64,000 bases of DNA from Candidatus Latescibacterota bacterium. Lineage in GTDB: Bacteria > Latescibacterota > UBA2968. Position 1 is the stretch's first letter, and each line of letters begins with the position of its first letter. The stretch covers positions 2,464,001-2,528,000 of the forward strand of contig OZ242195.1 in assembly GCA_965205975.1 (NCBI GenBank). Direction: 5' to 3'. The notes under the pieces are model-generated. The model had not been told where the DNA came from. It did no database searches and saw only the letters and a program-made list of their open reading frames with translations. The position numbers were made by a program, and so were the translations under genes. This document shows, piece after piece, positions 18,828 to 41,194 of this stretch.

Positions 18828-19550
18828 CTACGCATTACCATTTGTTCCATACATATAATCCAGATACAATTTTTCCAAATCCTCATGCTCCAATTCAGCA
18901 CGGGTGCGCTCCATGAGCAACTGCCCTTCCTTCATAATACCTACCCGGTCAGCGAGAGAACGCGCCCTGAAAATATCGTGTGTGGACATAAAAATGGCTT
19001 TGCCTTCACCTCTCAACTCTTCGAGCAAATCCATAAACTCAGCACCGGCTTGTGGATCTAAACCAGCGGTCGGCTCATCCAGAATAACTGCCGGTGCATC
19101 TCGAATGATGACAATGGCAATACCCACCTTTTGTCGCATCCCTTTAGAAAACGCCTTGACCCGCTGTTCAAAGGCTTGCTCCTGTAATCCCACGCGCTCC
19201 AAAATACGATAATATCCATCGCGGTCAGTTTCTTTGCCAGCCAAACTCGCAAAAAAATCCAGATTCTGTCGTGCAGTAAAGTTGCCATAAAGCATGACAT
19301 TTTCAGACAGATATGCGACATACTTCTTCGCCTCAAGCGGGTCTCGCGTCACATCAATATCATTAATCTTTGCCGTACCCTCAGTTGGCTCAATAAAGTT
19401 CAACATCAAATTGATAGCCGTTGATTTGCCTGCCCCATTTGCACCCAGCAAACAGAATATCTCTCCCGAGGGCACTTTCAGATTCAAATTGTCCAGTGCC
19501 AGAACACCATCTTCATACCGCTTCGAAAGTTCGATTGCTTCAATCATCAC
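18828..19550 (-). CDS. ABC transporter ATP-binding protein
   Basis: GANGAGKS, FSKGMRQK, ILDEPT, STH. Confidence 0.97.
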   Translation of the reverse strand: MMIEAIELSKRYEDGVLALDNLNLKVPSGEIFCLLGANGAGKSTAINLMLNFIEPTEGTAKINDIDVTRDPLEAKKYVAYLSENVMLYGNFTARQNLDFFASLAGKETDRDGYYRILERVGLQEQAFEQRVKAFSKGMRQKVGIAIVIIRDAPAVILDEPTAGLDPQAGAEFMDLLEELRGEGKAIFMSTHDIFRARSLADRVGIMKEGQLLMERTRAELEHEDLEKLYLDYMYGTNGNA

Positions 19551-19564
19551 GCCTCCTTATAGCC

Positions 19565-21172
19565 TTATCGCCGCGTCAGCTTAACACCGTACCACACCAC
19601 GCCAACAACCAATCCGATCACACCGAGAATCAGCATACTACTCAACAAGAGATTCGTGCGTGCGGTAACGTGAATGCGTACCGTCTTATCCTGCGCCTCA
19701 ACAGATCTGTTATCTGCCATTGCCTGTGTCTGAATTTGAACCTCATAATCTCCCACGCCGACATCGTCGGGCGGCATAAATGTCAGTTGAACAGCGCGCT
19801 CTTTTGAAGGCAGCAGTTCGGAAATCACATCTGGCTCAACCGTTGATCGCCAATTGGGCGGCATATTGGCGCGAATCGCCACATTGTCCAAACGCCTCGT
19901 CCCATCGTTATACACGGTCACTTCCATAAAAACATCTTCGTCAATGCTGATCTCATGATAGAGATTTACAGCACGGACCTCGATGCGCCCCACGCCTCTC
20001 GGCACCAGTTCCAACTTGACTTTACTAACATCAAGCGTATCCAGTTCAGCCGCCGAAAACATGCGTTCTTGAATGGGTTGTAACCTTCGCCAAACTTCCT
20101 GGGGCAACACAAGGGCGTAAAACTCGATGCGTTTGTCAATCGCCACATCCACATCTGAGCGTTCGGGCAAATACACTTGTAAAGACAGATCGTGACTCGT
20201 CTCATTTTGCCGAAAATTGATCTGGCTCAAACGCGCACCTGACCGCGTAAATTGCGCGTTGATTTGCTTCGGCAGGTTCACAACCGCCAATTGAAAAGCA
20301 GCTCTCCCACTCGAAAATCGCTCAACCCGCACCGCATAAGTTGCGCTTTCTCCCAGGTCTGCCTCTTGTGAAAACTGCATCACTTCCAGAATTGGAATCG
20401 CTTTCTCTGATTCGGCTTCTACTTTCACTGGCATTTGTTTGGTCACATCCAAATACTCCATTTGGATTGTAATCTGATCGGCCTCTTCGTCCAGAAGTTG
20501 AAAGGTGAGCGATTTTTCTTCGTATAATTTAAGCGACGGCACAATCTGATCATAGGGTTTGCCAATAATGGTTCCCCCCTGATAAATGGACACAATGATA
20601 TTCTGAATCTCCAAAAGCGATGTCAGGCGTGCCTTTGACATATCCTGGTCGAGGGCGTCTAAGCCTGCGATTTCTACACCGATTTCGGCCAACTCTGACG
20701 TTCCGGATAAATAGGTCTCTGCCTCCGACACATTAGACGAGTTCTTCAAGGTCACATCAACCATCCGCCGTCCATCGGGCAAAATATATTTTTTTGCTTC
20801 CATCACTGAAATATGCGTGGCATCGCGTAAAAAATTCAGCTTTGTCTCGCGCAATGTCAACACGGCTTGCTTGTAAAGAACTGAAGCCTCCTCAAAGGCC
20901 TTTTGCGCGTCATTGAGTTCTTTCAACGTGTAAATTTTTTCTTTAAACAATTCATCTGCAATCTCCAATTCCCTTTTCTTATTTTTCAGGTCTTCTCTGC
21001 GCCGATCCAAATCCACTTCGGCTTTGCGAAGGCGCAATTCATTCAACAATTGCACCTTTGTTTTGCCTGTATTCGTCGGTGCGCTGACATCTTCTGTACC
21101 TTCAAGTTCTCCTACCCACACCATCACAAAGAACGCACAACCAACGCCCCATATCGCACCTATCCTATTCAA
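19565..21172 (-). CDS. Secreted/membrane protein: N-terminal coiled-coil hairpin, Ig-like domains including a NEW3/NPCBM-associated-like domain, C-terminal TM anchor
   Basis: Signal-like N-terminus, helical segment at about residues 45-110, VYNDGTRRLDNV...PPNW...PPDDVGVGDY, terminal hydrophobic helix followed by KLTRR. Confidence 0.7.
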   Translation of the reverse strand: MNRIGAIWGVGCAFFVMVWVGELEGTEDVSAPTNTGKTKVQLLNELRLRKAEVDLDRRREDLKNKKRELEIADELFKEKIYTLKELNDAQKAFEEASVLYKQAVLTLRETKLNFLRDATHISVMEAKKYILPDGRRMVDVTLKNSSNVSEAETYLSGTSELAEIGVEIAGLDALDQDMSKARLTSLLEIQNIIVSIYQGGTIIGKPYDQIVPSLKLYEEKSLTFQLLDEEADQITIQMEYLDVTKQMPVKVEAESEKAIPILEVMQFSQEADLGESATYAVRVERFSSGRAAFQLAVVNLPKQINAQFTRSGARLSQINFRQNETSHDLSLQVYLPERSDVDVAIDKRIEFYALVLPQEVWRRLQPIQERMFSAAELDTLDVSKVKLELVPRGVGRIEVRAVNLYHEISIDEDVFMEVTVYNDGTRRLDNVAIRANMPPNWRSTVEPDVISELLPSKERAVQLTFMPPDDVGVGDYEVQIQTQAMADNRSVEAQDKTVRIHVTARTNLLLSSMLILGVIGLVVGVVWYGVKLTRR

Positions 21173-22523
21173 AATACCCCATCACCTCCCTCAAATTTTC
21201 CAGCGCATTGATATAGCCATCCTGACTCTGAAACAGCCGCTCTTGTCCCGCAAAAAAGAGATCCCGAAACGTTTCAACCTGGTTGTCTGTCACCTGTCCC
21301 AGATCGCGCAAACGCTCCTGAATTTCAAGCCGCCTGCTGTCCATTTGGAGGCGTCGCGTATTGATCTCCCGTTGCAAAATCCGATCTTGTAGTGTCTGGT
21401 AGTGTTGCCGCACATCGCGCTCAACCTGCTCGCGTCGGTCTCGAAACGATGCCTGCACCTGATACAATCGCGCACGCGCAGCCCCAGTTTGTCCATAGCG
21501 AGAAAATCCCGAGAGAATCGGCATTGAAAATTGAAAAAGTGCGAACTTATTTGTATCTCGCATTATAAAACGCGAATCCAAAGGCAGGTTACCTGTACGC
21601 AAGAGCAATACATCTGAAGAGGCATCCAGACGCCAGGTGCGCTGGCTGCGCGTCAGATCAAATCCCAGGACCTTATCACCACTTTCCATGCCAACTTTTA
21701 TTCCAAGATCCGGCAAGTAGTCCAACCGCGTTTCATGAAATGCGCGTGAGACCTCAGCAACTTCCTCGCCAAGTCTTTCAATCTCTACATCGCGGCTCAG
21801 AGCTATTGCAACGGCATCTTCCAAACTCATTTCAAAATCCTCAACCTCCCCAACCAACATCACGTCTTGCACCATATCGCGCCCCATCAACCGCAAGAGA
21901 TCAAAGGTCAACCGTGCTTTTTGCCCCAACAAGACACTGATCTGCGCTTCTTGTTCCAAAGAATCTAACTGCGCCGTTAGTAAATCAAATTCTTTTGCCA
22001 CACCGTGTTCGTATTTCACCCGAATACGCCGCAATTTTTCCCGCACATTGTCGAGTACCTCGCGTCGGTTGGCAATTTGCTGCCTTTTAACAATTGTCAA
22101 ATAGAAATTGCGCCTCACCTGTGACAACACGCGCCGCGTTTGTCGTTCGTAGTCAAGCCGCGCTAATCGCATTCGCGACCGATACGCCACTTCTTCAGGT
22201 GCATCAGCACCAAACTCCAACACGCGCTGTCGCGCATGCAAAATGGCTTCATCGCGAAATAGATCACTATCTATGTGTCGCAGATCTGGCACATTGTACC
22301 GGGTCTTCAAATCCACCTGTGGAAAAAACCGGGATCGCACCACCCACTTATCGTAATCTATCTCCTCAACGCGCTGTCTGGCAGACAGTAGAGTTTCATT
22401 GTGCGCTCGCGCCAGTGCCAAACAGGTCTCAATCTCCAGCACCCCACCTTGTTGTGTATGACTAACAGGTGCCCAGGACATCAGGATACATAAAAACACC
22501 AAGCGATTCAAAAAACGCACCAT
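21165..22523 (-). CDS. TolC-family outer membrane efflux protein
   Basis: Signal peptide; two repeats (LALARAHN..FFPQVDL and AIALSRD..YLPDLGI); FSMPILSG; GGAGG RBS. Confidence 0.85.
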   Translation of the reverse strand: MVRFLNRLVFLCILMSWAPVSHTQQGGVLEIETCLALARAHNETLLSARQRVEEIDYDKWVVRSRFFPQVDLKTRYNVPDLRHIDSDLFRDEAILHARQRVLEFGADAPEEVAYRSRMRLARLDYERQTRRVLSQVRRNFYLTIVKRQQIANRREVLDNVREKLRRIRVKYEHGVAKEFDLLTAQLDSLEQEAQISVLLGQKARLTFDLLRLMGRDMVQDVMLVGEVEDFEMSLEDAVAIALSRDVEIERLGEEVAEVSRAFHETRLDYLPDLGIKVGMESGDKVLGFDLTRSQRTWRLDASSDVLLLRTGNLPLDSRFIMRDTNKFALFQFSMPILSGFSRYGQTGAARARLYQVQASFRDRREQVERDVRQHYQTLQDRILQREINTRRLQMDSRRLEIQERLRDLGQVTDNQVETFRDLFFAGQERLFQSQDGYINALENLREVMGYFE

Positions 22524-22819
22524 AACCTTTCCTCCGAAGGCAGCCGTTGAAGCCTGTGTCAATAACCGCACTAATCTCTCTGCTACTGTCACTGGTTCCC
22601 TCATACTCAGAGAGATAATGCACCTCAGAGCATGTAGGCCAATTATCATGCCTCATTTGCCCGTAGAGAACTCCAAAGCAGTGGGCATACCATCAATATG
22701 CCCTGTCCGCAAAAGATACGCAATCGCATCGCGATTTTCAAACTCTAAAGAAATTCTTACTGACTCTTTGATCTGCTTACGCTGGGAACATGAAACATTA
22801 CAAATTGATCTTGAAAATC

Positions 22820-22855
22820 AAAAAAGGTTGCGGGTGCATTGCCCGAAACCTTTTT
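22820..22855. terminator. Bidirectional terminator-like hairpin at the left edge of the AT-rich cargo
   Basis: AAAAAAGGTTgCGGGtGCA...TGCCCGaAACCTTTTT. Confidence 0.7.
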
Positions 22856-22987
22856 CAGGTATTACAAGCGAGATTTTTTGCTCATCAGCCAAATTTATGT
22901 TTGAACATCCACCAAAGTGATATTCACACTACTTATCATAGATATTTTACACCGCTTATCACCTGGAGACTTCACATTCAAATTTAG

Positions 22988-24502
22988 TTAACGCACATCG
23001 TATTTTAGAAATGACACATACGTTCCAATAAAAAGCAGTAGGGATAAGAGGATGAGCAATAGGATGTCAATGAGTGTCGCTTGCACAACAGAAACTATCG
23101 ACATCTTTTGATACTGAAACACAGGAATCTCATTCAGATTGACCTTTTCGAGCTTTTGTATTTCTGAAAAAGTATTCAGCAATTCGCCGTCCTCCCGGGA
23201 TTCTACGATTATTCCCTCTGTTATGATTTCTTCCGCTACGTCGCCATCAGATGTTACGCGTACTATTTCCCTATTTTCAATTTTTGTTTTTATAAATGCA
23301 ATATATCTTTCTCTATATCCCCTTAATAACTTGATAAAATGCCTAAAGCTATCCATTCCTGTATCAGCGAGGTCCGCCGTTGCATATGTCATTGCAGAGG
23401 CAGGAGATAGGCGGGAAAAGGTGATTGCAAGATTAGCCAAATTTTGTTGTCGTTGTTGGTATTCTCGCTCCATCCGAGCTTGTGCATTTTCAAGCTCAGC
23501 ATCTCGCTGTTCATGAATTTCTTTTTTCTTTTTTTTATATTCATTCCATCGCCTTTCCGCTTGTTCCATACTTTTCCGACTGAATATCTGATCCTGATCG
23601 TACAAAAGCTTCTCACTAATCTTATAATATTTTTTAAAAATATCATTCATTAATTGCGTTTTTTTGATACGGTATTGCTGGCTTGAAGGAACGTGAATAA
23701 ACTGTGTAGCAAGGATACTGCTACTTTTGGGAATGATAAGTACGACCATCACCCAAATAAAAAGTCCGACCAAAAAGGAGATACTCGAACTCTTCGTACG
23801 AGCCGAAATAAATGCACCAATCAAAAAAAAGACGGTTAGATACAGCAGAAATATGCAAAAAATCAAAATCAGACGTAGATAGTCATCGCTTTCAAACTGA
23901 ATATTAGGCAATAGAAGAAGCACAGCCATGCTCAGGAGCATGGGAATCAATAAGGGAATAAATAAACAGAGCAGTCCGCCGATCAATTTGCCCAAGATAA
24001 GCGTGTCACGCGGCACGGGAAATGAGGCGATCAAACGCAGAGTGCCACCTTCTTTTTCTCCTGAAAGCGTGTTATACGAGAAGACTACGGCTAAGAGGCT
24101 AAGGATATATTTTATGATGAAAGTCAGACTAAAATCACCGAACAGTGCCCAAACAGGATTGCCCTCAATTTTGCTGCCATGAAGTTCTGGTGTGCTATAC
24201 GAATTAATATTCAGATTTCTGCCGATGTAATTCGCTATGCCGACATTGAAAATCGCCAGCACTTCTGGCGGTTTACTGATGCGGATACCTTCGCTTTCAA
24301 TGTCTTCATATGTTTCTTGGGATTTCAGCGAATTTCTATTAAGTGCCTGAATGCCGTTGTAGTCATTCACAAGATCGCTATAATTGCACACACTGAGATA
24401 AAAACTCAAAAAAATCAGCATCGCACTCAGGATGCAGGCAATGACAAATGTCGCGTCGGAAAACCGCGCCAACAATTCTTTTTCTATAATTATTTTGAGC
24501 AT
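22988..24502 (-). CDS. ABC-2 type transporter permease (paralog A)
   Basis: SGEKEGGTLRLIASFPVPR..LILGK, SRLSPA, terminal FLKYDVR. Confidence 0.9.
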   Translation of the reverse strand: MLKIIIEKELLARFSDATFVIACILSAMLIFLSFYLSVCNYSDLVNDYNGIQALNRNSLKSQETYEDIESEGIRISKPPEVLAIFNVGIANYIGRNLNINSYSTPELHGSKIEGNPVWALFGDFSLTFIIKYILSLLAVVFSYNTLSGEKEGGTLRLIASFPVPRDTLILGKLIGGLLCLFIPLLIPMLLSMAVLLLLPNIQFESDDYLRLILIFCIFLLYLTVFFLIGAFISARTKSSSISFLVGLFIWVMVVLIIPKSSSILATQFIHVPSSQQYRIKKTQLMNDIFKKYYKISEKLLYDQDQIFSRKSMEQAERRWNEYKKKKKEIHEQRDAELENAQARMEREYQQRQQNLANLAITFSRLSPASAMTYATADLADTGMDSFRHFIKLLRGYRERYIAFIKTKIENREIVRVTSDGDVAEEIITEGIIVESREDGELLNTFSEIQKLEKVNLNEIPVFQYQKMSIVSVVQATLIDILLLILLSLLLFIGTYVSFLKYDVR

Positions 24503-24549
24503 GGAGATACATACCTAAAAAATGAAAAGAGTAACCAATTAACAGAACC

Positions 24550-24580
24550 ACCATCGTGGTCGAAATAAGACCACGATGGT
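24550..24580. other. 12-bp perfect hairpin between the small-protein gene and permease A
   Basis: ACCATCGTGGTC-gaaataa-GACCACGATGGT. Confidence 0.75.
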
Positions 24581-24814
24581 AGTAATACCAATCAGATATA
24601 GAAATCTTGCACTTTGTAATCAGGTATGGTCTGTCTATGCCTATTTTGCACGCCGAAATGCAGTCAGACAGTCAGGTTCTCGAAAATGAGCTACAATGTC
24701 ATGCAAGATTAATTCATACGATTGGTATAACATAGAATGTGAAGCCCTGGACAAAAGTCTGTTAGCACTATTTACTATTTATGGTTGGACCCCACTCTTG
24801 GATATCAAACCCGA

Positions 24815-25168
24815 CTAACTACCTGCGTCTGCGTACTCCACATCTCCCGAATCATGAGCATGATGAAATACACACTTTGCAAAATTTTTAGCCTTGTACT
24901 TTCCGCTAGGTTTGCACTTAAAACCTTTAAGATGGTGTCTCACTTCATCCGCATCATACATGTAGAAACACTCGTAACTAGCATCGTCGCTCACCGTCCT
25001 GAGAGCCTCGTCTAGCGTGTCATACTCACATTCTGTTTCTTGATAAGCATCTTCAGTCACATCATGGGCCACTGCGCTGTCAGGAATGACCCAAGGCACC
25101 ATCATACCAGCCGAACACAAAATAGTGCTGAATTTCGGCACATTGTTGGGCAACCAGTTTGCAATCAT
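24815..25168 (-). CDS. Small secreted Cys-rich protein/precursor 1 (117 aa)
   Basis: AGGAGG RBS; 34-aa leader ending SAVA shared with the 27193-27543 gene; four Cys in the predicted mature part. Confidence 0.85.
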   Translation of the reverse strand: MIANWLPNNVPKFSTILCSAGMMVPWVIPDSAVAHDVTEDAYQETECEYDTLDEALRTVSDDASYECFYMYDADEVRHHLKGFKCKPSGKYKAKNFAKCVFHHAHDSGDVEYADAGS

Positions 25169-25340: not shown

Positions 25341-25433
25341 CTACCGACTACATCCAGGGCTTAATGCTTCCGGCGAATGAGTTAAACCTCCTTTCTGTTT
25401 ATCAGTGATAAACTCTCAAATCCCTCATATTCC
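25341..25433 (-). pseudogene. Remnant of the 3' end of the DsbA-like gene
   Basis: Translates FITDKQKGGLTHSPEALSPGCSR*, compared with FVTDKQKGGLTHSSEAVSPGCGR* in 27717-29957; frameshifted further upstream. Confidence 0.85.
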
Positions 25434-25520: not shown

Positions 25521-26936
25521 TCAACGTACATCGTACTTCAGAAATGATACGTAAGTACCAATAAAAAAGAGCAGTGAAAGCAGAATAAGCAAGAGCATAT
25601 CAATGAGTGTCTCTTGAATAACATAAGCAAGTGGCATTTTTTCATATATAAACATAGGCATTTCATTCACATTGGGCTTTTCGCTTGTCTCGACATTTCT
25701 AAAATCATGTAGTTTTTCTTTTATAAACGCGATATATCTTTCCTTGTATGCGTATGCTGATCTAATGAAATGGTCAAAGCTACCCAAGCCCGTGTCAGCA
25801 AAATTCATAGTTGCATGGGTCATTGCAGCGGCAGGAGATATGCGGGAAAGGGTAATTGCAAGGGTGGCCAAATTTCGCTGTTGTTGTTGGTACTCTCGTT
25901 CCATCTGAGCTTGTTTCTTTTCCAGCTCAATATGCTTTTGTTCACTAATTCCATCCATTTTTTTTAGATATTCGTCCCGTAGCTTTTCCCTGAGTTCGCG
26001 ACTCGTTTCTATATTTTGTTGAGCGGTATAATCTTCTGTCAGTTGCGTCCGCTTCTGGTCATATTTATCAGAAAGATCATCCCATAATCGGACTTTTTCA
26101 ATACGATATTGCTGGCTTGAAGAAACCTGTATAAACTGTTCAGCAAGGATACTGCTACTCTTTGGAATGACTAGTACGACCAATACCCAAATAAAAAGCG
26201 CGATTAAAAAGGACACATTCACACTCTTGGTGCGTGCCGAAACGTACGTACCAATTAAAAAAAAGACGGTTAGATATAGTAAAAATATGCCCAATATAAA
26301 AATCAGCCGAAGCCAATCATTGCTTGCAAATTGAACACTCGGCAATAGAAGGAGGACCGCTAAGCTCAAGAGTGTGGGGATCAATAATGGGATGAATAAA
26401 CTGAGCAGGCCCCCGATCAACTTCCCCAAAATGAGTGTGTCTCGTGGCACGGGAAAGGATGCGACCAATCTGAGGGTGCCCCTTTCTTTTTCTCCAGAGA
26501 GCAGGTTATACGAGCAGATAATGGCTAAGAGGCTAAGTATATATTTTATGATGAAAGTTAGATTAAGATCGCCAAATAATGCCCAAACCGGATTGCTCTC
26601 AATCTTGCTACCCTGAAGTTCTGATGTAATAAACGAATTAATGTTCAGATTTCTACCAATGTAATTCGCTATGCCGACATTGAAAATCGCCAGCACTTCG
26701 GGGGGTTTGCTTATATTTATACCTTTAGTACTAATGCCCCAATACGTTTCTTGTGCTTGGAGTAAATTTCTATTAAGTATTTGAGTGCCATTGTAGTCAT
26801 CCACAAGATCGCTATAATTGCGTACACTGAGATAAAAGCTCAGAAAAATCAGCAGAGCACTCAGAATACAGATAATGACAAAAGTTGTATCAGAGAATCG
26901 CGTCAACAGTTCTTTTTCTATGATTAATTTGAGCAT
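25521..26936 (-). CDS. ABC-2 type transporter permease (paralog B)
   Basis: MLKLIIEKELL start parallels paralog A; SGEKERGTLRL; FLKYDVR. Confidence 0.9.
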   Translation of the reverse strand: MLKLIIEKELLTRFSDTTFVIICILSALLIFLSFYLSVRNYSDLVDDYNGTQILNRNLLQAQETYWGISTKGINISKPPEVLAIFNVGIANYIGRNLNINSFITSELQGSKIESNPVWALFGDLNLTFIIKYILSLLAIICSYNLLSGEKERGTLRLVASFPVPRDTLILGKLIGGLLSLFIPLLIPTLLSLAVLLLLPSVQFASNDWLRLIFILGIFLLYLTVFFLIGTYVSARTKSVNVSFLIALFIWVLVVLVIPKSSSILAEQFIQVSSSQQYRIEKVRLWDDLSDKYDQKRTQLTEDYTAQQNIETSRELREKLRDEYLKKMDGISEQKHIELEKKQAQMEREYQQQQRNLATLAITLSRISPAAAMTHATMNFADTGLGSFDHFIRSAYAYKERYIAFIKEKLHDFRNVETSEKPNVNEMPMFIYEKMPLAYVIQETLIDMLLLILLSLLFFIGTYVSFLKYDVR

Positions 26937-27192: not shown

Positions 27193-27543
27193 TCAGGAAC
27201 CTCCACCTCCATTTCCGTCGTCTCCGTCGTCTCCACAATTTGATACACACCTTGCTGTACCATCGGCTTTAAAACATATTCCCCATATGGTGTATCCGAA
27301 ACTCCAATTCCCTGTTGTTTCGAGATAATCCTTGTTTTTTGAGGAACATTTGTTTCTTCCCTCAGTGTCCAACGCACTCATAGCGGCCCCGGGAGTAGCA
27401 TAATCGCAGGGCACAGAGACAGAATAATAATGTATCGTGCATGCCATAGCACTACTGGGAAGTAGCCAAGGCACCATCATACCAGCCGAACACACAATCC
27501 TACCGATTTTCGACATATTATTGGACAACCAATTTGCAATCAT
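27193..27543 (-). CDS. Small secreted Cys-rich protein/precursor 2 (116 aa)
   Basis: GAGGAGG RBS; leader ending SAMA; six Cys in the predicted mature part; Gly/Asp tail. Confidence 0.85.
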   Translation of the reverse strand: MIANWLSNNMSKIGRIVCSAGMMVPWLLPSSAMACTIHYYSVSVPCDYATPGAAMSALDTEGRNKCSSKNKDYLETTGNWSFGYTIWGICFKADGTARCVSNCGDDGDDGNGGGGS

Positions 27544-33326: not shown

Positions 33327-34502
33327 TCACTCTTTTGTTTTTATGATTTCAGAAATAAGCTGTGCTGTTCTGTAAGCACCATTAAGTTGAATATTATATG
33401 CTACTGGCTTTCTGCATAAACTCTTCTGAATCTCTTTAGCCAGAATCTCTGGTGATAGTTTTTGCTCGTCAATTTTAGTGGCGAAACGCCTGTTGGCGAA
33501 CTTCTCTGCTCGCAATTCTTGATCCCCCCCTGCCTTTGCAGGGACCAAAATAGCTTTAACTCGCTTTTCGAGAATATTCATACAGGTGTTATAGCCTGCT
33601 CGGCTAATCGACAAATCCGCTATTTCCATCCACTCCAGAAAATTCGGTGTAAATCTATGCACAATAATGTCTTTCGCTCCCGCACAACATGCACGAAGTT
33701 CGTTAAAAGATGCTGCACTCAAAAATTCACCACAAAAGACAATAAATTTGCTTTTCAAATCTTTATTGAGGTATTTCTTAGCCTCAATACAGTTTCTCAA
33801 AAAATCCATAGTACCATAAGAATCAATTCCGCTTCCAGCAGTTATAAGAATCACGCTCTCATCGGGAGACAAATCGATATGAGAGGGAAGGAAGCCTGTA
33901 TCATGTTGATTCCAAGATTTTTTTTGAGAGACATAACCTGTATAATGAATTTCAATATCGATATGATGCCATGATGTGAAAAATTCCTCAACTTCACAGA
34001 ATTTCGGATCGGCATGGACAAATAGATGAGCAAAATAAGTATTCAAGATTGCACAACATCTCATCATATAAGATTTTGTATATTCTGTTTTTTCTTTTGG
34101 AATATCTCTTAAAGAACATATAACCTGCGTTCTCAATTGTTTTAAAAGTTTAATAGTATGCAGGGTTGGGAGCAATTCATCGCGCAAATACCATCTGCCA
34201 AAAGGGAAAAATTCTATAATGAACACATCAGGTTTAACTTCCTCAAATGTGGAATGAATAATTTGTTGACGCTGCGTGATGATATTCGAGTAAATAGGAC
34301 TGTCGGTTGATATTCCACCTTCGTCAAAATTAGGAAGGGGCCTTATTGTGACATGATCAGGATTAGAGTAATTAGAAAGTTCCCGACCCCCATTAAGATA
34401 GAAAAGGTCATATCCCTCTAACGCTTCAATGAGTTGACGAGTCCGGACATAGTGTCCAATTCCTCTAACGTGATGGCTGTAAAACAAAATTCGAGGCCGC
34501 AT
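33327..34502 (-). CDS. Predicted GT-B glycosyltransferase (GT28/GT1-like C-terminal domain)
   Basis: YSHHVRGIGH, IEFFPFGR, SISRAGYNT, DQELRA. Confidence 0.85.
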   Translation of the reverse strand: MRPRILFYSHHVRGIGHYVRTRQLIEALEGYDLFYLNGGRELSNYSNPDHVTIRPLPNFDEGGISTDSPIYSNIITQRQQIIHSTFEEVKPDVFIIEFFPFGRWYLRDELLPTLHTIKLLKQLRTQVICSLRDIPKEKTEYTKSYMMRCCAILNTYFAHLFVHADPKFCEVEEFFTSWHHIDIEIHYTGYVSQKKSWNQHDTGFLPSHIDLSPDESVILITAGSGIDSYGTMDFLRNCIEAKKYLNKDLKSKFIVFCGEFLSAASFNELRACCAGAKDIIVHRFTPNFLEWMEIADLSISRAGYNTCMNILEKRVKAILVPAKAGGDQELRAEKFANRRFATKIDEQKLSPEILAKEIQKSLCRKPVAYNIQLNGAYRTAQLISEIIKTKE

Positions 34503-34510: not shown

Positions 34511-35740
34511 CTATTTTGAATCATCAACACATTCGGTAGTTTGGTAAATTTCCTGTGTTCGATAATAAATATCTAACCAGGTAGTAGATTCTCGTTCAGC
34601 AGAAAAATCTTCCTCTATCGTTTTTAGAGCAGCCGTTGCTAACTTTTGGCGCAATTGAGTATTTTGAGCTAAAAGTTCCAATCTTTGGGCCAGTGCTTCA
34701 GAAGATCCTGGCGAGACCAAAAACCCATTTTCCTTATCTTTTATGACGCCTTTAATACCATCAATGCGAGATGCAACTATCGGCAACCCGATACCCATTG
34801 CCTCCAGTAACGCATTGGGCGATCCTTCGTATAGGGATGGAAAAGCGAAAATGTCCAGCTCTTTGAGCCACGCAGAAACGTGCGCGTGAGGAACTGGGCC
34901 CGTGATTGTAACTTTCTTTTTTAATTTCAAATATTTGATCTGTTGCTTTGTAATCGCTTCATCATATTGACTTGTAAATCCGCCAACGAGAAGCAGGTGT
35001 GCTCTTGGGTAGGTTACTAACAGATCCTTAAAAGCCTCTAAAAGATGATTGAATCCTTTCTTGTGTCTTATAAGACCAGAAGTGCCGATCATTGGCGTGC
35101 TACCTTCTTTTATTTTTTTAAATTTTTGAAAAAATAGACGATAGCGCAAATTTTGTTTTTTTATAATCTCTGATAGCGCATCCGATTCGAACATTGAAAC
35201 ATCCACAGCATTGTCAATCACTTGAGAAAAAGGCAACGAAACAATTTTTTTTGCGATCTCTAAAAGCTCCGACGTGACGGATGTAACAAATGTGGCATTC
35301 TGAAGCACCCATTTTAATGTGCCCAAATAAACAGGACTAAAGCGCAATAACTCAATGTCATTTCCTCTGATACTCAATACCAGAGGGCATTTAATTGCTT
35401 CAGCCGCCCAGGAAGCTACGAAACCCGAAGGAAAAATGAAAAATCCATGCACGAGATCAAATTTCACCTCATCATTAAGACTGATCACATATTCTGTCGC
35501 TTCCTTAAGCTCGAGAGGATTAGCCTGAAGATAGTTACCCAAAGAAGGAAAAAGTCTATGCACAACAATGCCATCTTCTACGCTTGGCAAAATTTGAGCA
35601 TCGACTCGATTATTGCCAGGCGCAATGACATGGATTTGCACACCAGCGTTGACCAAATTCTTGGCAATCCTATAGGTCGCGGTTCCTACCCCACCTCGTA
35701 TCATTGGTGGGTACTGAAATGTCACGAAGCAAATTTTCAT
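34511..35740 (-). CDS. GT4-family glycosyltransferase (paralog of 32122-33315)
   Basis: QYPP..GGVG, FPSLYEGSPNALLEAM. Confidence 0.92.
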   Translation of the reverse strand: MKICFVTFQYPPMIRGGVGTATYRIAKNLVNAGVQIHVIAPGNNRVDAQILPSVEDGIVVHRLFPSLGNYLQANPLELKEATEYVISLNDEVKFDLVHGFFIFPSGFVASWAAEAIKCPLVLSIRGNDIELLRFSPVYLGTLKWVLQNATFVTSVTSELLEIAKKIVSLPFSQVIDNAVDVSMFESDALSEIIKKQNLRYRLFFQKFKKIKEGSTPMIGTSGLIRHKKGFNHLLEAFKDLLVTYPRAHLLLVGGFTSQYDEAITKQQIKYLKLKKKVTITGPVPHAHVSAWLKELDIFAFPSLYEGSPNALLEAMGIGLPIVASRIDGIKGVIKDKENGFLVSPGSSEALAQRLELLAQNTQLRQKLATAALKTIEEDFSAERESTTWLDIYYRTQEIYQTTECVDDSK

Positions 35741-35743: not shown

Positions 35744-36829
35744 TCAAAAACTTTTAATTTTTCTTTTTAAAGAGCCTTTACAACAGGCTAATAGGAGCTT
35801 AAATCGTTCGCTGATGTCTATGTAATCCGTAAAACCCGTAAAATCCGAGTTTTGAAATCTGATGAATGAATTTATTCCAAGAAATGAGACTTTTTTGCAT
35901 TCATAAAAAAAACGCCAGCTCAGTACTTGTGCAAAAATGGGTTCTGGATAGAATTTCTGTTTCTCATTCGATGATTTAAGCTGGCTTAACCAGAACAGCA
36001 GTTGATCGAGAGACCCTCTATTGATTTTTGAAGAAAGACAGAGATATTGATGTGCTTCTTCAACTTGAGATGACTTTAAGAGACCACTTCTTTTTAAAAT
36101 ATTTTTTCTAACGGAATTTGAGAAGAACTTCTGCACATCGCGATATTTTTTCCCAATTTGATTAGCGTGTTCCCGGTATTTTATAAGTGGCTCATCAATA
36201 TTGTGCATTTGACATACCATCGCACATTTATCCCACAAGGCCATATCCTCAGCATGTAGAAAGTAGGGATCATATTTGAGCTCATTCTTGGTTAGTACTT
36301 GCTTTCTAATCATAACAGAAGGGTGGGCCAACGGTGTTTTGAAAAGCATAAAGCATTGTATCTCGTCATGAGAAATAGGAAACTTCCGAATATATTCTCC
36401 CGATTTCTTCATTACAATTACCCAACTCCCACAGACACCTACTTGAGGATTTTGACTCATAAATTCAAGCTGCCTCTCTAACCGCGAAGGCAAACAGATA
36501 TCATCACAATCTATTCGCGCTATGTACTCTCCTCTTGCTAATTTTAATCCTTTATTCAAGGAGCGGGTTAGACCAATATTGTCTCTATTCTTGATCACTC
36601 TGATTCTCGAATCGTCATATCCCTCAATAATCTCAAGGCTGTTATCAGAAGACCCATCATCAATAATTAAAAATTCAAAATTGGGCATTGTTTGCGTAAG
36701 AACGCTATTTATGGCCTCTCTTATATGAGTTGCACCATTATAAACAGACATTAAGACTGTGATTTTGAAATTCTTTTTTCCTTTTGAATAATTCATCTCA
36801 AGCTTATTCCTCAAACTCCATTGCGACAA
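35744..36829 (-). CDS. GT2-family glycosyltransferase
   Basis: VLMSVYNG, IIDDGSSD, ARIDCDD, AED. Confidence 0.92.
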   Translation of the reverse strand: MSQWSLRNKLEMNYSKGKKNFKITVLMSVYNGATHIREAINSVLTQTMPNFEFLIIDDGSSDNSLEIIEGYDDSRIRVIKNRDNIGLTRSLNKGLKLARGEYIARIDCDDICLPSRLERQLEFMSQNPQVGVCGSWVIVMKKSGEYIRKFPISHDEIQCFMLFKTPLAHPSVMIRKQVLTKNELKYDPYFLHAEDMALWDKCAMVCQMHNIDEPLIKYREHANQIGKKYRDVQKFFSNSVRKNILKRSGLLKSSQVEEAHQYLCLSSKINRGSLDQLLFWLSQLKSSNEKQKFYPEPIFAQVLSWRFFYECKKVSFLGINSFIRFQNSDFTGFTDYIDISERFKLLLACCKGSLKRKIKSF

Positions 36830-37595
36830 AGGCTCTGGGCCTCAGAAACTGCCATCCTCTTTGAAACCAAATTATCTCCGGTTCCACCCGCTCACCAACA
36901 ATCTTTCTGGCAAAATTCCATCCCCAGTGTTTATTTGTTGGCACTTGAGACTGTAGCAAATCTTCAAACGAAATCCTTCCTTCTACGCTCCAATAATCCT
37001 TTCCGATACTTACCTCTGTCTTGAGGCTTTTAGGATTCCATGCCTTAGGATCTGTAAAAGGCATTAACAATGGAATCATTTCTTCTGGTATTTCTTTATT
37101 TCTTATTTTAGCTTTCAATTCTATTGATATTTTACAGATATCGATAATTATATTTCCAGCATTAACATTAATCCTTAAAAAAGAATCCTGCATGTTGTCT
37201 GGCAAGATGTAGAGGGCAACATTGTCGTCCTCTGTTATTTTCATTTTGTCGTGTACACTCATTTCTATTTTCAACTTTTCTGGATTTGAATCCCAGTTCA
37301 AAAACGAAAAATACAGATGCGATTTATCATACATCAACCTTACCTGGCTGCGGAGATTATCCTCAATAAATCTTCCGTCTGCGGTCGTGAATAGATTAAA
37401 TATGGGGGCTTGATTCCATACTTGATCCTCAAGTTTACCATCAATCTCAGGAACATCTTCAACAAGTGGAATACTTAGGGGAGTACTTGTATTTTGTCCT
37501 GGGATATCCTGGACATATCCCCAAAAAAATAAAATACTGCTCAAAATACTGCCAACAAGCAGACATCGAATATCAAGTCTTCTCAGTACTACCAC
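36804..37595 (-). CDS. CBM9/DOMON-like sugar-binding protein with an N-terminal anchor
   Basis: PEIDGKLEDQVW, VRLMYD..HLY, WSVEGRI.F, WGWNFAR; AAGGAGA RBS before GTG. Confidence 0.75.
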   Translation of the reverse strand: MVVLRRLDIRCLLVGSILSSILFFWGYVQDIPGQNTSTPLSIPLVEDVPEIDGKLEDQVWNQAPIFNLFTTADGRFIEDNLRSQVRLMYDKSHLYFSFLNWDSNPEKLKIEMSVHDKMKITEDDNVALYILPDNMQDSFLRINVNAGNIIIDICKISIELKAKIRNKEIPEEMIPLLMPFTDPKAWNPKSLKTEVSIGKDYWSVEGRISFEDLLQSQVPTNKHWGWNFARKIVGERVEPEIIWFQRGWQFLRPRAFVAMEFEE

Positions 37596-37871
37596 AGATT
37601 CTTCTCCTTGTTGTAGTTACGTTGAAGCAGCCCATATCGAGACCGATTTGCCTGCGCGTAGCACGTAAACAGGCAGACAAGCGCATAGGAGCCTGTGCCC
37701 CGATCAAAATGGAAAGCAGGAAAAGGGAATGACGCACTCTGGTACAGACGAGCACCGGCTGTACGTTGGAAAGTTTTGAGAAAAAATCGTGAGACGAGGA
37801 AAAGGAAGGATTGCGCGAATGCGGGAAATGAGGAAGATGAGGAAGGTTGAGAGAAAGAGGGTTTAAATCTA

Positions 37872-37880
37872 CCCCCCCCC
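37872..37880 (-). repeat. G9 homopolymer inside a mini-ORF (MKEGGG*, 37889-37869)
   Basis: Minus strand ATG AAG GAA GGG GGG GGG TAG. Confidence 0.85.
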
Positions 37881-38065
37881 TTCCTTCATAAACTCATAAA
37901 AAACAATTATTTGAGAAGGTTTTTGGGAGATCATGGAATACATCAGGCACGTTAGAGGAACGATAAATAGTTCCGCGATGGCGCGAAGGTTTGAAATAAG
38001 TTGACGAAAGGTCTTCATAAAACCTATCCTTTGGATTACGAGACACACTCTTGAACTTCAAACGC

Positions 38066-38094
38066 AAAATAAGCCCGTCTATTTGGGCTGTCAA
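38066..38094 (-). promoter_or_regulatory. Sigma70-type promoter for the glycosyltransferase/DsbA cargo operon
   Basis: TTGACA-N17-TATTTT with an A-tract upstream; AGCCC/GGGCT inverted repeat in the spacer. Confidence 0.7.
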
Positions 38095-38157
38095 GTATTT
38101 TTTTGATAAAAAAAATCTATCTGTTCGCATGCGATAAGTTTTCCACCATCTCAACCC

Positions 38158-39741
38158 TCAACGCACATCGTATCGCAAAATTGCCACATAAGCACCCGCA
38201 AAACCCAGCACTGCCAGCAAAGTCAGATTGAGAAAGTGATAGGCATTCCGCGCCAAGCAGGAAGAAAAAGATTCGATATCCCGATACGTAAACGGCACAA
38301 AGTCACTCACATCGCGATCTTGTTTTGCGATTCGCCCTTTCTCGCGAATGAATTTTGCCATGTACCCAATGTGTATTCTCAGCGCATCTTCAATCTGTTC
38401 CTGCTGAACAAATCCCGTGCGGCATAGATCCATAGACGCAAATGTCACAGCACTAAATGGTGAAATGGCCGACACAGCCACTGTTGTCGTGCGGCGTTCG
38501 CGCAACTGATTCCGTTGCGCTTCCCGCAATCGCTTGAGGCCGTTGACAAACGCCATCTCTGCTTTTTCTTCAATTCTATCCCGCGCTTCATAATAAGCCG
38601 CCCGAGCGTCTTCTTCAGGCTCGCCACGGTACACAGCCATCTGGGCTTCACGAATTGCCTTGAGAGAAGCTTCGGGAATGGTGATGTATTTTTTTGCAAT
38701 CTGTTCGCGTTGTTCTTGCGACATGTCTCGTCCCCACTTTTTTGTCAGTTCCTGTATTTCTAAATAAGTATCTATACCCTTCACATTTAGCTGCTCAAGG
38801 CTTTCTCTTGCCCGTTGTCGCACTCTTTCCAGCCGTTCTTCATAATGCGTTTGGTAATCGTGTTTTTTGTCTCGCTTAATCTGCCAGAATAGTTCATCTA
38901 CCCGCTTTTGCACGGTCACAGAACTATCCACCGGCATCCATTCTCGCGACAAACGAACGCCTATGTCGGGCACAATAAAAATCCAGATCGTCCAGAGGCT
39001 CAAAAGTCCCAAGAACGCCGTCAGGCGTCGGGATGTTAGTGCCGAAGCCAAAAGGCCAAAAGCGGCAAACACACACAGATAGAGCGCAAACACGACCATC
39101 AAAGCACCCAATCGCAACCAATCTTCGGTCTGGAGTGCGACAGAAGGCGACAGCACCAATACGCAAACAGCGACCAAAAAACAAAAAACAAAGGGCACCA
39201 GTGCCATCAGTATTGCCCCTACCAGTTTAGACAGTGCCAGCATGGCTCGCGACACGGGAAAGGATGCGTACAGGCGAAGCGTACCCGACTCTTTTTCTCC
39301 ACATATCGCATCGTATATGAATAACAGAACCGCCAAACTCAAAACGAACTTCACAATAAAGGCCAGATCCAACACCCCAAAAAGCGCATAAATGGGGTCT
39401 TCCTCAAAAAGGCTGGCTTCCATGCGCGGCATCAGTTCGTGCTGGATATAAACCTCACGTCCCAATTTGCCCGACAAACCAAACACAAGTGGACTCAAAG
39501 GCTCTGGTCTGCGACCCCACCGATATCCCTTATGGGGCGTATCCCGATTATCGAGTACCGCCTGCAAATCCTGCCGATGGGTCTGCGAGGTGGCCTGATA
39601 TTCCCGCATCTGCTGGGCATAATTCTCAACGCCTACATACACGCTTAGTGCCGATAAGAGAACACACAATCCAAAAACAGCTATGAATCGGAAATCCGTC
39701 AGGTATTGCGCCAATTCTTTTTGAACCAATCGTCCAAACAT
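38158..39741 (-). CDS. ABC-2 type transporter permease (paralog C)
   Basis: CGEKESGTLRL..SFPVSR, ISPF, LRYDVR. Confidence 0.9.
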   Translation of the reverse strand: MFGRLVQKELAQYLTDFRFIAVFGLCVLLSALSVYVGVENYAQQMREYQATSQTHRQDLQAVLDNRDTPHKGYRWGRRPEPLSPLVFGLSGKLGREVYIQHELMPRMEASLFEEDPIYALFGVLDLAFIVKFVLSLAVLLFIYDAICGEKESGTLRLYASFPVSRAMLALSKLVGAILMALVPFVFCFLVAVCVLVLSPSVALQTEDWLRLGALMVVFALYLCVFAAFGLLASALTSRRLTAFLGLLSLWTIWIFIVPDIGVRLSREWMPVDSSVTVQKRVDELFWQIKRDKKHDYQTHYEERLERVRQRARESLEQLNVKGIDTYLEIQELTKKWGRDMSQEQREQIAKKYITIPEASLKAIREAQMAVYRGEPEEDARAAYYEARDRIEEKAEMAFVNGLKRLREAQRNQLRERRTTTVAVSAISPFSAVTFASMDLCRTGFVQQEQIEDALRIHIGYMAKFIREKGRIAKQDRDVSDFVPFTYRDIESFSSCLARNAYHFLNLTLLAVLGFAGAYVAILRYDVR

Positions 39742-39757
39742 TCACAGCCCCTTAAAA

Positions 39758-41194
39758 TCAACGCAGGTCATAGCGCAGCATTGAAACATGCGCGCCCAGA
39801 AAACAAAGCACACACCATAAAGCCAACAGACCCAAATTTACGATTCCCGCTTGCAAATCCGTATCCGGCCAAACGTCTCGATAAACCACACGCGGAACAG
39901 TCGTATAATCAATCTGATATTTTCCGTATTTTTTTGGATTTGCCTTGCTCAATTGATCTTGATTGAGTTCTTTCCAATACCACGCACCATGGGCATCGCG
40001 TGTGTCATCAAAAGCATTGAGATATCGCTTATGACGACCTATCCCCGTGCCCGCCAGTTTAATCGTCATCTGATCAAGCGCAAACTTTGGCGACATCCTG
40101 GCAATCAGCATCGCCAGATCAAATCGCGCATTGTACTGATTTTCAAACGCTTCTTCCAATCTCGCGGTCTCTGGTTGTGCTTTTTTTCGCATGGCATCGC
40201 GCACACGTAACCGCATCTCCTGGCGCGCTTCTCTGCCTTCAGGCGATCTATACCAGGGTTCTCCTATTCTTTGTTGATAATCATTTTCCCATTCTATTTG
40301 TTGCTTAAAACGCGTTCGCGTATTCTCACGGCTCATAGCCCTTAAATTTGCCTGCAATTGCTGTTGAGAGGGCGCAGGGCGAATCACGTCTGCCGCTATC
40401 AGACTCAGACGCGGTACGATTGCCACAACGACGACCCAAAAAAACAAAAGGATGACAAAGGAAGTCGCCTCTCGATAAACCAGAGACGATGCAAAAACCC
40501 CCGCACAAACAAAAACTGTGAGATACAATGCAAACCCCACAACAATCCAAGTTAGACGGGTCAGTTCAGGCCCTCGAATTTGCACGTCAGGCAATAGCAA
40601 AACTATGCCAATACCCGCCACAAGAGGTACGCCAAAAGCGAGCGCAGTTGGGATCAGCGCGCCCAAAATTTTGGCAACGAGCACCTGCACGCGCGCAATG
40701 GGAAATGAGCTCAACAATCGAAGTGTCCCGCGCTCCTTTTCGCCATTAATAGCGTCATACGTCAGGAGCAAAGCAAACAAACTCAAGACCATTTTGACCA
40801 CACTGTCCAAATCCAGAAAGGGGAAAATACCCAGTGTTGGTTCCTCTGCCACAGGACTAAATTTTAACCGTCGTGCGTGTTGATAAGCAATATACCCCGT
40901 CCTGCCCAACGTGGGTTCAATACCCCGCACAAAAATGCTCATCGCAGTCGGTGGTTTCGATGTTGGATACCCCACATCTCCTGCCGTGCCCATATCATTT
41001 GCCTCAATCAGATAGGCCCGGTGACTTTCAGTCAGCGTCTCCGACAAACGATGGTCTGCCAACGAATCGCGATAATATCCATATCCACTATACAGGCTCA
41101 AGGCAATAATACCTGCCCCCAAAACAGTCAGGATCAGAAACCGCAAACTCAGAATATGATCCAGAATTTCTTTTCGAAGTAAATGACCCAGCAT
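39758..41194 (-). CDS. ABC-2 type transporter permease (paralog D)
   Basis: NGEKERGTLRLLSSFPIAR, RMSP, LRYDLR. Confidence 0.9.
   Translation of the reverse strand: MLGHLLRKEILDHILSLRFLILTVLGAGIIALSLYSGYGYYRDSLADHRLSETLTESHRAYLIEANDMGTAGDVGYPTSKPPTAMSIFVRGIEPTLGRTGYIAYQHARRLKFSPVAEEPTLGIFPFLDLDSVVKMVLSLFALLLTYDAINGEKERGTLRLLSSFPIARVQVLVAKILGALIPTALAFGVPLVAGIGIVLLLPDVQIRGPELTRLTWIVVGFALYLTVFVCAGVFASSLVYREATSFVILLFFWVVVVAIVPRLSLIAADVIRPAPSQQQLQANLRAMSRENTRTRFKQQIEWENDYQQRIGEPWYRSPEGREARQEMRLRVRDAMRKKAQPETARLEEAFENQYNARFDLAMLIARMSPKFALDQMTIKLAGTGIGRHKRYLNAFDDTRDAHGAWYWKELNQDQLSKANPKKYGKYQIDYTTVPRVVYRDVWPDTDLQAGIVNLGLLALWCVLCFLGAHVSMLRYDLR

Follow-up and report, generated by a model that had tools for sequence, protein, structure and literature searches.

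A genomic island of Latescibacterota encoding a candidate two-step secretion route for small cysteine-containing proteins

What might be exported, and by what machine, from a locus in which small cysteine-rich proteins are encoded among ABC-2 permeases, a TolC-family protein, a DsbA-family protein and glycosyltransferases (GTs)? This question is raised by a ∼24-kb island at about 18.8–42.65 kb of the window (the whole 64 000-nucleotide stretch of Latescibacterota DNA analysed here). The gene order and strand given by an earlier, sequence-only reading were borne out by gene calls and a domain scan, with 16/16 genes present in one block on the minus strand. Pfam matches comprised ABC_tran, NEW3, OEP, four ABC2_membrane_2 (with DUF3526) and a double Thioredoxin_4/DSBA, as well as, in the enzyme block, Hepar_II_III, two GT4, GT28_C, GT2 and a weak CBM9. 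No Rfam match was found within 18–43 kb; a tRNA scan was also empty. The part from the enzymes to permease A is indeed AT-richer than its surroundings (GC 0.36–0.46 versus 0.46–0.52 outside): values were 0.36–0.42 for the enzymes, DsbA and permeases A and B, 0.45–0.46 for the precursors, 0.46–0.50 for permeases C and D, TolC, adaptor and ATPase, and 0.49–0.52 for the flank genes.

The island is carried by 3 of the 21 genomes of the genus (G000, G002 and G012), and in 17 of the 18 non-carriers the site is empty, with the island flanks 0.1–3.5 kb apart. Beyond the precursors, island genes are 82–97 % identical among carriers; GT block, precursor and exporter are inherited as one unit. As pS is equal in island and flanks, the three carriers represent one inheritance event, and we rejected their use as three independent tests of GT linkage. 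The source bacteria are uncultured and were found in marine and sponge metagenomes; no RNA holder was among the 13 runs listed, which does not bear on expression in either direction. With regard to the promoter and terminator proposed earlier, counts were not above chance as judged from shuffled sequence (36 promoter-like sites versus 44.3 ± 7.4; 19 terminator-like sites versus 16.2 ± 3.8), although the candidate σ70 promoter of the GT-to-permease block (38066–38094, minus strand, 10/12 consensus) falls within sequence that is 93 % conserved in G002. The putative terminator, proposed from sequence and fold, is a hairpin with a U run in the gap between permease A and TolC (22820–22856, minus); a 15-pair hairpin occupies the gap between precursor 1 and permease A (24547–24583, minus).

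The two small ORFs are genuine genes, with strong ribosome-binding sites and 15 database relatives at E ≤ 0.01. Precursor 1 (24815–25168, minus) has a 34-aa leader and an 83-aa core with four Cys, six His and a C-terminal Ser, whilst precursor 2 (27193–27543, minus) has a 34-aa leader and an 82-aa core with six Cys and again a C-terminal Ser; cores of about 83 aa, as first proposed, thus follow if signal peptidase cleaves after residue 34, as we infer. The family comprises ∼17 sequences, and the following counts are for 16 members, a 64-aa fragment (P0008) having been left out. The AxA-like leader end and the even number of Cys in 16/16 cores, two of them invariant, agree with the suggested signal-peptide-type leader and disulfide core. 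The leader is predicted to route the precursor through Sec; it has no twin-arginine motif and just a weak hydrophobic segment (highest mean over 11 residues, 1.3–1.9 in 15/16). A lipoprotein reading was rejected, as Cys18 lies outside any lipobox and is Tyr in 3/16. The comparison of cargo between sister genomes called for earlier gave a conserved leader and a hypervariable core (62–76 % versus 21–29 % identity among carriers), with core substitutions saturated and leader pN/pS at 0.34–0.54 in five of six pairs and 1.22 in the remaining one. The last core residue is Ser or Thr in 16/16, no internal Ser, Thr or Asn is conserved in the alignment, the first mature residue is His in 13/16, Asp in 2/16 and Cys in 1/16, and HxH occurs in 14/16; some members have Cys-rich acidic tails, and both His motifs are missing from precursor 2.

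No Pfam or NCBIfam entry matched the family (no Pfam below E 0.08 across the 16 members), one of the 16 matched PHROGs (E 0.007), and an ESM Atlas search with the core gave no usable match. The model of the precursor 1 core (pLDDT 87.7, beta-alpha-beta-beta) predicts a compact, RcsF/dodecin-like fold. Its best fold match was of DUF74/YbjQ type; matches (Z 6.3–7.6 at 4–11 % identity) included 3qkb (Z 7.6, rmsd 2.3, 68 aligned) and RcsF (Z 6.5, rmsd 3.2, 65 aligned), all below the Z of 8 under which, according to the tool, possibly just a common arrangement is detected. With Foldseek, neither the PDB nor the viral libraries gave a match at E ≤ 0.001. The modelled core resembles RcsF, dodecin and YbjQ (DUF74) in its topology and has no lipobox.

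Each precursor is encoded beside a permease that is its putative partner. Permease A (22988–24502, minus; PF12679), the partner of precursor 1, has a NosY-like membrane core (NosY, E 1.8 × 10−13 over profile positions 130–260, is the nearest solved permease) and a large periplasmic coiled coil with a variable tip. Permease B (25521–26936, minus; ATG start, the ORF scan beginning at TTG 27035), the partner of precursor 2, is 71 % identical to it. Repeats D1–D7 and a remnant of the dsbA 3′ end (25344–25412, minus; tblastn, 83 % to DsbA residues 724–746) mark a tandem duplication of the precursor–permease cassette. Genomic context is known for four family members, all of which adjoin permeases, whereas a metagenome scan made for the 12 database-only members gave one unrelated match; in run X6, permease A and a precursor-1-type gene share a contig. 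A precursor and the permease next to it diverge jointly, as a cassette: permease pS is 0.44–0.58 versus 0.14–0.31 for other island and flank genes, the permease A tip is 38–57 % identical versus 75–80 % for the membrane core, and pN/pS is 0.50–0.69 in the tip versus 0.20–0.26 in the core. The variable coiled coil may recognize its own cargo. Permeases C (38158–39741, minus) and D (39758–41194, minus) share an extra insertion, and C groups with permeases of families f2 and f3. Both lie in a 4.5-kb extra stretch of G000 (38104–42654) that also holds an IS200/IS605-family TnpB gene (41419–42537, plus; NF040570 over cut-off) and is absent from G002 and G012, each of which has a single permease in its whole genome, adjoining the precursor. 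Several permeases per ATPase are common (up to 12 permease matches), so that the earlier idea of four sharing one ATPase stands in this respect; C and D, however, are an insertion and not needed, and we rejected all four as core parts.

The remaining exporter genes are, in the order of transcription, those for a TolC-family outer-membrane factor (21165–22649, minus; PF02321, E 4 × 10−27; no match in a PDB sequence search), an adaptor (19565–21172, minus) and, last in the island, a 240-aa ABC ATPase (18828–19550, minus; PF00005, E 1 × 10−28; 96–97 % to G002 and G012). The proposed ABC-2 plus TolC exporter was upheld, the hairpin–Ig protein now being identified, from its predicted architecture, as the missing adaptor. 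This protein has an N-terminal hydrophobic helix, an alpha-hairpin (39–118), three beta-sandwiches, the last of which is NEW3, and a C-terminal membrane helix; its AF2 model (pLDDT 88.8) predicts a hairpin and three Ig domains, with no full-length fold match (TMq ≤ 0.27). There was no HlyD Pfam match, and only the hairpin resembles canonical membrane-fusion adaptors: 4 of its 12 PDB matches were membrane-fusion proteins (E 0.013–1.5), each individually weak (probability 19 %). The adaptor is present in 78 of the 168 genomes of the phylum, with homologues also labelled KSB1. TolC adjoins it in 23 of 39 stretches, and a precursor was found in 11 of the 39; as 28 are without a detected precursor and 16 without an adjacent TolC, the exporter serves different cargo, or cargo encoded at a distance.

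In another family of the phylum, the same exporter carries, behind GTs, a six-cysteine precursor family unrelated to the first (hhalign probability 0.8 %). It comprises 82 proteins, four of which were dropped because their leader end could not be parsed; 72 of the 78 parsed cores have exactly six Cys, just 45 of these 72 have Ser or Thr after the last Cys, and the aligned cores have no His pattern. Such precursors were detected in 15 of the 31 genomes of genus g25; an adaptor lies within 35 kb of 22 of the 40 matches, and all seven inspected matches away from an adaptor adjoin permeases. The operon runs from GTs, non-orthologous to those of the island, through precursor–permease cassettes with other permease clades to adaptor, TolC and ATPase. 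A 275-aa companion protein gave only unnamed ESM Atlas clusters, at 0.87. This recurrence of the island layout with unrelated small proteins points to a likely undescribed secretion route.

The double DsbA-family protein (27717–29957, minus; motifs CAYC and CPYS, hydrophobic N-terminus) had been taken for a dedicated folding enzyme. It does travel with the island: DsbA-family matches occur in 3 of the 21 genus genomes, exactly the carriers, with only this gene in each, and it is the only PF13462 match in the genome. It is not a constant part of the system, as 15 second-lineage stretches gave no DsbA or other Dsb match, and a G079 orthologue is followed by a BNR-repeat protein and not a precursor. 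Given that the genome has DsbD and no match to DsbB or VKOR, its role as an oxidase is uncertain, and we infer that it acts in disulfide formation or, more probably, isomerization. Its second domain resembles copper-resistance ScsC-type proteins.

Taken together, we give somewhat better than even chances to a two-step secretion route. The leader would take the precursor through Sec, the core would fold in the periplasm with all Cys paired, and the cognate ABC-2 permease, shared ATPase, hairpin–Ig adaptor and TolC would expel it, so that export would proceed out of the periplasm and not across the inner membrane; the island GTs may also add sugar to the cargo. For the cargo, we think a strain-specific part in competition or recognition between neighbouring bacteria most likely; the rapid turnover of cassettes would then be accounted for. 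A wider proposal, which we consider rather unlikely, is an undescribed, phylum-wide system of ABC-2 permease arrays, an Ig-based periplasmic adaptor and TolC, with each permease as a swappable receptor for one cargo and at least two recruitments of unrelated Sec-type disulfide miniproteins, glycosylated (some sulfo-glycosylated) before export.

The sugar step is where an alternative weighs most. The block encodes, all on the minus strand, a CBM9-like protein (36804–37595; PF06452, E 2 × 10−4, below cut-off; hydrophobic N-terminus), a GT2 (35744–36829; PF00535), a GT4 (34511–35740), a GT28-like GT-B enzyme (33327–34502; no match in a PDB sequence search), a second GT4 (32122–33315; both GT4s by Pfam match) and a heparinase II/III-like protein (30014–32125; Pfam match, no clear signal peptide). 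Attachment of sugar to the cargo is plausible. The even Cys counts leave no spare Cys for S-glycosylation, the C-terminal Ser/Thr is the best candidate O-glycosylation site, and cytoplasmic O-glycosylation before Sec export, the weakest step of the proposal, falls short of an even chance. GTs were found in 11/11 adaptor stretches with a precursor versus 2/28 without (blastp, 11 GT queries), figures that cover two lineages only and stretches of unequal length (7–53 kb, precursor loci extended). The linkage of GTs to precursors claimed earlier holds in the carriers, where they form one unit, and in the second lineage with unrelated precursors, but not in G019, where a GT28/GT4/sulfotransferase set, the closest outside one, has neither a precursor nor an exporter within 20 kb. 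We regard as evenly poised the view that the block is a passenger, with a (sulfated) glycan or glycolipid as its product, and that its enzymes do not act on the small proteins at all; this concerns the GT step alone, and overlaps and agrees with the export model. The nearest solved relatives of the GT2, over its N-terminal domain, are chondroitin and heparosan synthase domains, an N-terminal sulfotransferase is fused to it in G002 (runs X6 and X10 have ∼1.07 kb of additional sequence here, lost in G000 and G012), and these genes, with the heparinase-like and CBM9-like ones, fit a free or surface glycan equally; the G019 set, the lower GC of the block, the single inheritance event and the lack of a conserved internal Ser, Thr or Asn also favour a passenger. 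Against it, the domain scan detected neither a flippase nor a polymerase nor a priming GT among the island proteins, non-orthologous GTs also head the second-lineage operon, and GT28-like paralogues lie in peptide-maturation-like clusters in 4/4 other places in G000 and 9/10 sampled elsewhere.

Export itself has rivals. The cargo could be a bacteriocin-like or signalling protein that is secreted through Sec and then takes another way out, with the cognate permease, adaptor and TolC as an immunity or clearance pump that rids the periplasm of incoming cargo. Toxin–immunity pairs diverge together, as do precursor and permease tip here, and permeases often lack a detected precursor (C and D; the 28 of 39 stretches), like orphan immunity genes. 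We nevertheless judge this improbable, as the single permease of G002 and G012 adjoins the precursor and the island encodes no other dedicated exit; moreover, export and self-protection can coexist. Still less probable is a role of the cores in binding metal, in the periplasm or after secretion, with the NosY-like ABC complex serving to load, unload or recapture metal and not to secrete protein. NosY is part of a copper-delivery complex, and the His at the first position, the HxH motif, the Cys-rich acidic tails, the ScsC-like Dsb domain and the DUF74/YbjQ-type fold match would all suit such a function; a metal site, however, does not explain saturated cores, precursor 2 and the second family lack the His features, and the island has no metal-uptake receptor or NosD-like gene. 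It is very improbable that the small ORFs just happen to lie next to an ABC-2 efflux pump of a general type: exporters do occur without precursors in most sampled stretches, but two unrelated precursor families interleave with permeases in repeated cassettes, a layout that largely refutes this view, and every family-1 gene with context and every fetched off-adaptor family-2 match adjoins a permease.

Should the two-step route be correct, the unannotated ABC-2/DUF3526 permeases and NEW3 proteins of Latescibacterota would acquire a function, and, if the glyco-miniprotein reading also holds, a new secreted class invisible to current family libraries would be revealed; both precursor families (∼17 and 82 sequences) were missed by Pfam and NCBIfam. 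Natural precursor–permease pairs open cargo specificity to direct tests by swapping, and the single-cassette operon of G002 or G012 is compact enough for expression.

In the literature searched (mostly open-access, main texts) we found no description of the island's secretion system. Among known systems, glycocin clusters (sublancin, glycocin F) likewise combine a Cys precursor with a leader, a PF00535 GT2 and a thiol-disulfide oxidoreductase. As far as the cited account goes, their class-defining pair is a SunS-like GT and a peptidase-containing ABC transporter (PMC9811515); no C39 peptidase or ABC_membrane match occurs among island proteins, as first stated, whilst that scan does detect C39 in three further clusters of G000, and we rejected membership on this ground. 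The island further differs in its signal-peptide-like leader end, core of 80–105 aa with a predicted fold and lack of a spare Cys. One-step type I secretion was rejected too, there being no HlyB-type exporter and the cargo having an N-terminal signal-type leader. NosDFY has a NosY-like permease in common with the island, in which the domain scan found no NosD/Beta_helix match. YbhFSR is an ABC-adaptor tripartite pump for which the cited passage gives no protein cargo (PMC8277102), and the island permeases have a long extra periplasmic coiled coil.

In its proposed working, the island system resembles two machines for small folded proteins, with other parts. According to the cited account, heat-stable enterotoxin STII is exported by Sec, has its signal cleaved and its disulfides made by Dsb, and is ejected from the periplasm by an ABC-adaptor-TolC pump, MacAB-TolC, whose MacB cargo is considered unlikely to exceed dispersin in size (PMC5985334). 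This two-step route for cargo of ≤ 10 kDa resembles that proposed here, the core is about dispersin-sized, and a TolC-family factor is common to both. In contrast to the FtsX/MacB permease and lipoyl/beta-barrel adaptor of MacAB-TolC, the island has ABC-2/NosY-like permeases, multiple, variable and paired with cargo, an adaptor of hairpin, three Ig domains and C-terminal anchor, and GTs in the operon; its permeases matched ABC2_membrane families only, with no FtsX or MacB_PCD match in a scan that detects MacB elsewhere, and with no canonical membrane-fusion adaptor either, MacB/FtsX-family membership was rejected. The Aat system (dispersin/CexE) is a dedicated operon of a small Sec-exported protein, a LolC/E-like permease (AatP), an ATPase, an adaptor, a TolC homologue and a modifying enzyme, an Lnt-like acyltransferase whose target is the N-terminal glycine of the mature cargo (PMC7943197). 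The island is alike in composition, with a small protein of predicted Sec export and candidate modifying enzymes; membership was rejected, as the island has no C-N hydrolase/Lnt-like gene and its mature cargo would begin with His, Asp or Cys. If our reading is correct, the island would join MacAB-TolC and Aat as the third machine to move folded small proteins from the periplasm across the outer membrane; its ABC fold would be another one, and the architecture of its adaptor has no solved counterpart.

All genes that the sequence-only reading had listed on the minus strand were found, in the same order; sites resembling the promoter and the terminator that it had placed there were no more numerous than expected by chance. 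The gene for the adaptor, the hairpin/Ig (NEW3) protein encoded between TolC and the ATPase, is present in 3 of the 21 genomes of the genus (G000, the genome of the window, G002 and G012), and the genes flanking the island lie 0.1–3.5 kb apart in 17 of the 18 non-carriers, the single exception being G017, where they are widely separated. Thus, the stretch from the ATPase gene to the CBM9-like gene has been gained or lost as one ∼24 kb unit. G002 and G012 have an identical gene order at the identical site, each with one precursor gene and one permease gene, the latter being the only one in its genome. As synonymous divergence of the island genes equals that of the flanking genes, the three islands represent one inheritance event rather than three tests. 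In G000, a 2.4 kb unit comprising the 3′ tail of the DsbA gene, a precursor and a permease has been tandemly duplicated. Of the four permeases proposed earlier to share one ATPase, A and B stand as parts of this repeated unit, whilst C and D form, together with a TnpB gene, a segment (38104–42654) that is extra in G000; in a midpoint-rooted tree of 106 sequences they cluster with permeases of families f2 and f3, separately from A and B (support 1.0), and in sequencing run X10 they are found on a separate contig. The TnpB gene, of the IS200/IS605 type, lies at the island edge (41419–42537), and contig depth in runs X1 and X10 indicates that it is present in several copies. To the right of the island (44900–48500), ammonium transporter and P-II-like genes are tandemly duplicated, and in G002 (L023–L024) several insertion sequences lie between the precursor, permease, DsbA and heparinase-like genes, none of which is broken.

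The two small ORFs, termed family 1, matched nothing in Pfam or NCBIfam and nothing convincingly in PHROGs; profile searches retrieved 12 and 15 family 1 proteins, with matches in 3 of the 168 genomes of the phylum. Across 16 full-length members, a conserved 34-residue leader whose end resembles a signal peptidase site (such sites follow the AxA rule) precedes a core of 80–105 residues with two invariant cysteines. The cysteine count of the core is even in all 16 members, His is the first residue in 13, HxH occurs in 14 and Ser or Thr is last in 16, counts which are not independent given that several members are close kin. From this parity and conservation we infer that the cysteines are probably paired. 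The precursor-1 core was confidently modelled by AlphaFold as beta-alpha-beta-beta (pLDDT 87.7), the closest folds being DUF74, RcsF, FvfA and dodecin, at Z-scores (6.3–7.6) under the level of kinship.

Among the four family 1 genes with known context, leaders are 62–76 % identical and cores 21–29 %, with other island genes at 82–97 %. Permease pS (0.44–0.58) is roughly double the values for the remaining genes of the island and for the flanking genes, and the periplasmic coiled-coil tip of the permease is 38–57 % identical compared with 75–80 % for its membrane core. Furthermore, a single contig of run X6 carries both a precursor-1-type and a permease-A-type gene, in an island with just one cassette, and in run X10 only conserved parts of the permease align and the precursor does not. 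Cargo and permease change jointly, as would be expected if cognate cassettes were exchanged.

The closest solved relative of the permeases is NosY. The adaptor model (pLDDT 88.8) has a hairpin, then three beta-sandwiches, and a membrane helix at the C-terminus, and no structure matches it over its full length; the hairpin shows weak matches to four membrane-fusion proteins, as well as to the RND adaptor of G000 itself (E-value 0.0012, probability 19 %). Among the 120 adaptor homologs listed, 7 carry PF25893, which is probably an adaptor hairpin model. Adaptors occur in 78 of the 168 genomes of the phylum, and the 873 homologs include some labelled KSB1. In 39 chosen adaptor-gene stretches, TolC adjoins the adaptor in 23, permease matches range from 0 to 12, and no TolC gene was found beside the adaptor in the 13 stretches comprising those from f2 and f3 and that of the second copy in G101. 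Many loci (L060–L062, L066–L068, L073–L075) carry two tandem adaptor genes, which suggests a hetero-oligomeric adaptor. At adaptor loci outside the window (L060, L066, L058), permeases alternate with HEAT-CBM9 or CBM9-DUF5916 proteins; the CBM9-like gene may belong to the recurrent components or encode further cargo.

In genus g25 (family f4), an exporter of the same type accompanies small genes with another conserved leader (26 aa) and a core of 32–48 residues, unrelated to family 1. These family 2 precursors occur in 15 of the 31 g25 genomes; of 40 matches, 22 have an adaptor within 35 kb and seven more that were examined are all beside permeases, the other 11 falling outside this count. Exactly six cysteines are present in 72 of 78 parsed proteins (82 database homologs in all). 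A GT1-transglutaminase fusion and a GT2 typically head the operons, which continue with repeated precursor-permease cassettes and a 275 aa secreted protein and end with adaptor, TolC and ATPase. As such, they represent the arrangement of the window built from other parts, with a second, independent cargo. The g25 arrays (L064, L069, L070, L078–L091) also hold DUF1573 and TPR proteins.

The proposal of a dedicated DsbA was borne out in part: PF13462 is found, among the 21 genus genomes, only in the three island carriers, which supports such a role, but it had no match in 15 g25 stretches and is not a constant component. In G000 there was no match to DsbB or VKOR and one to DsbD, the second site of the double DsbA is CxxS, and its domain 2 resembles ScsC-type proteins, features which would speak against a simple oxidase role. 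In G079, an ortholog of the double DsbA is followed by a BNR-repeat protein gene, and a ribonucleotide reductase with an intein is encoded at L077:4500–8222.

Glycosylation of the cargo, judged from gene content, remains a tentative proposal that we would rate somewhat below even. In its favour, blastp detected glycosyltransferases (GTs) in all 11 adaptor stretches that hold a precursor and in 2 of the 28 that do not, a comparison across two lineages and stretches of unequal length; the island GTs lack signal peptides, and the island contains no flippase or polymerase. Three of the four GT28-like paralogs elsewhere in G000 have as neighbours C39 transporters and small ORFs, presumably double-glycine precursors, which had no family match (the fourth is found with S8, ACP and DUF1611), and clusters of a similar kind surround those at 9 of 10 further loci that were picked. 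On the other hand, family 1 cores have no spare cysteine or conserved internal acceptor, and the GT2 is closest to glycan synthases and is fused in G002 to a sulfotransferase, the ∼1.07 kb encoding the latter being missing from G000 and G012 (36780–36789); an additional stretch of matching size is seen at this point in runs X6 and X10. The GT block may instead be a passenger; outside the island, the nearest such set, that of G019 (GT28 44–46 %, GT4 51 % and sulfotransferase 88 % identity), has no precursor, Dsb or exporter within 20 kb.

GT28-like matches were present in all 21 genus genomes. At L033, L034 and L035 (G000 C1, ∼2.80–2.82, 2.66–2.67 and 0.250–0.260 Mb), GT4/GT28-like genes accompany small ORFs (presumed double-glycine precursors), a CAAX protease, a cNMP-C39 ABC transporter, HlyD and a rotamase; similar clusters occur at L100–L103 and L105, one of the whole set adding a radical SAM/SPASM enzyme. 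These clusters may represent a class of glycosylated bacteriocins that lacks a GT2 of the SunS type. Another recurring cluster (L036:6690–19775 in G000, L097–L099, L104, L061, L062) combines an acyl carrier protein, a GT28-like protein, a conserved 340 aa protein and an S8 peptidase-DUF1611 fusion, sometimes with a radical SAM enzyme or a MacB-type pump.

Taken together, the system is real and well delimited. We lean towards two-step secretion of small variable proteins via ABC-2 permease, adaptor and TolC; the same complex may instead act as an immunity pump, or cores and ABC complex may jointly handle metals. No published description was found in the literature searched (main texts, mostly other than subscription papers), and the part of a paper on sponge Latescibacterota that was available (PMC12993501) gives antiSMASH classes only. 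There is a fair chance, though well below even, that the system forms a secretion class of its own. Glycocins, as defined in the accessible text of PMC9811515, need a peptidase-containing transporter, which the island lacks. According to the portions available, the proposed route works like STII export, which proceeds by Sec, then DsbA, then MacAB-TolC (PMC5985334), and like Aat/CexE (PMC7943197), but differs from both in permease fold, adaptor and modifying enzyme, whilst YbhFSR (PMC8277102, likewise in part) shows that related ABC-adaptor pumps exist.
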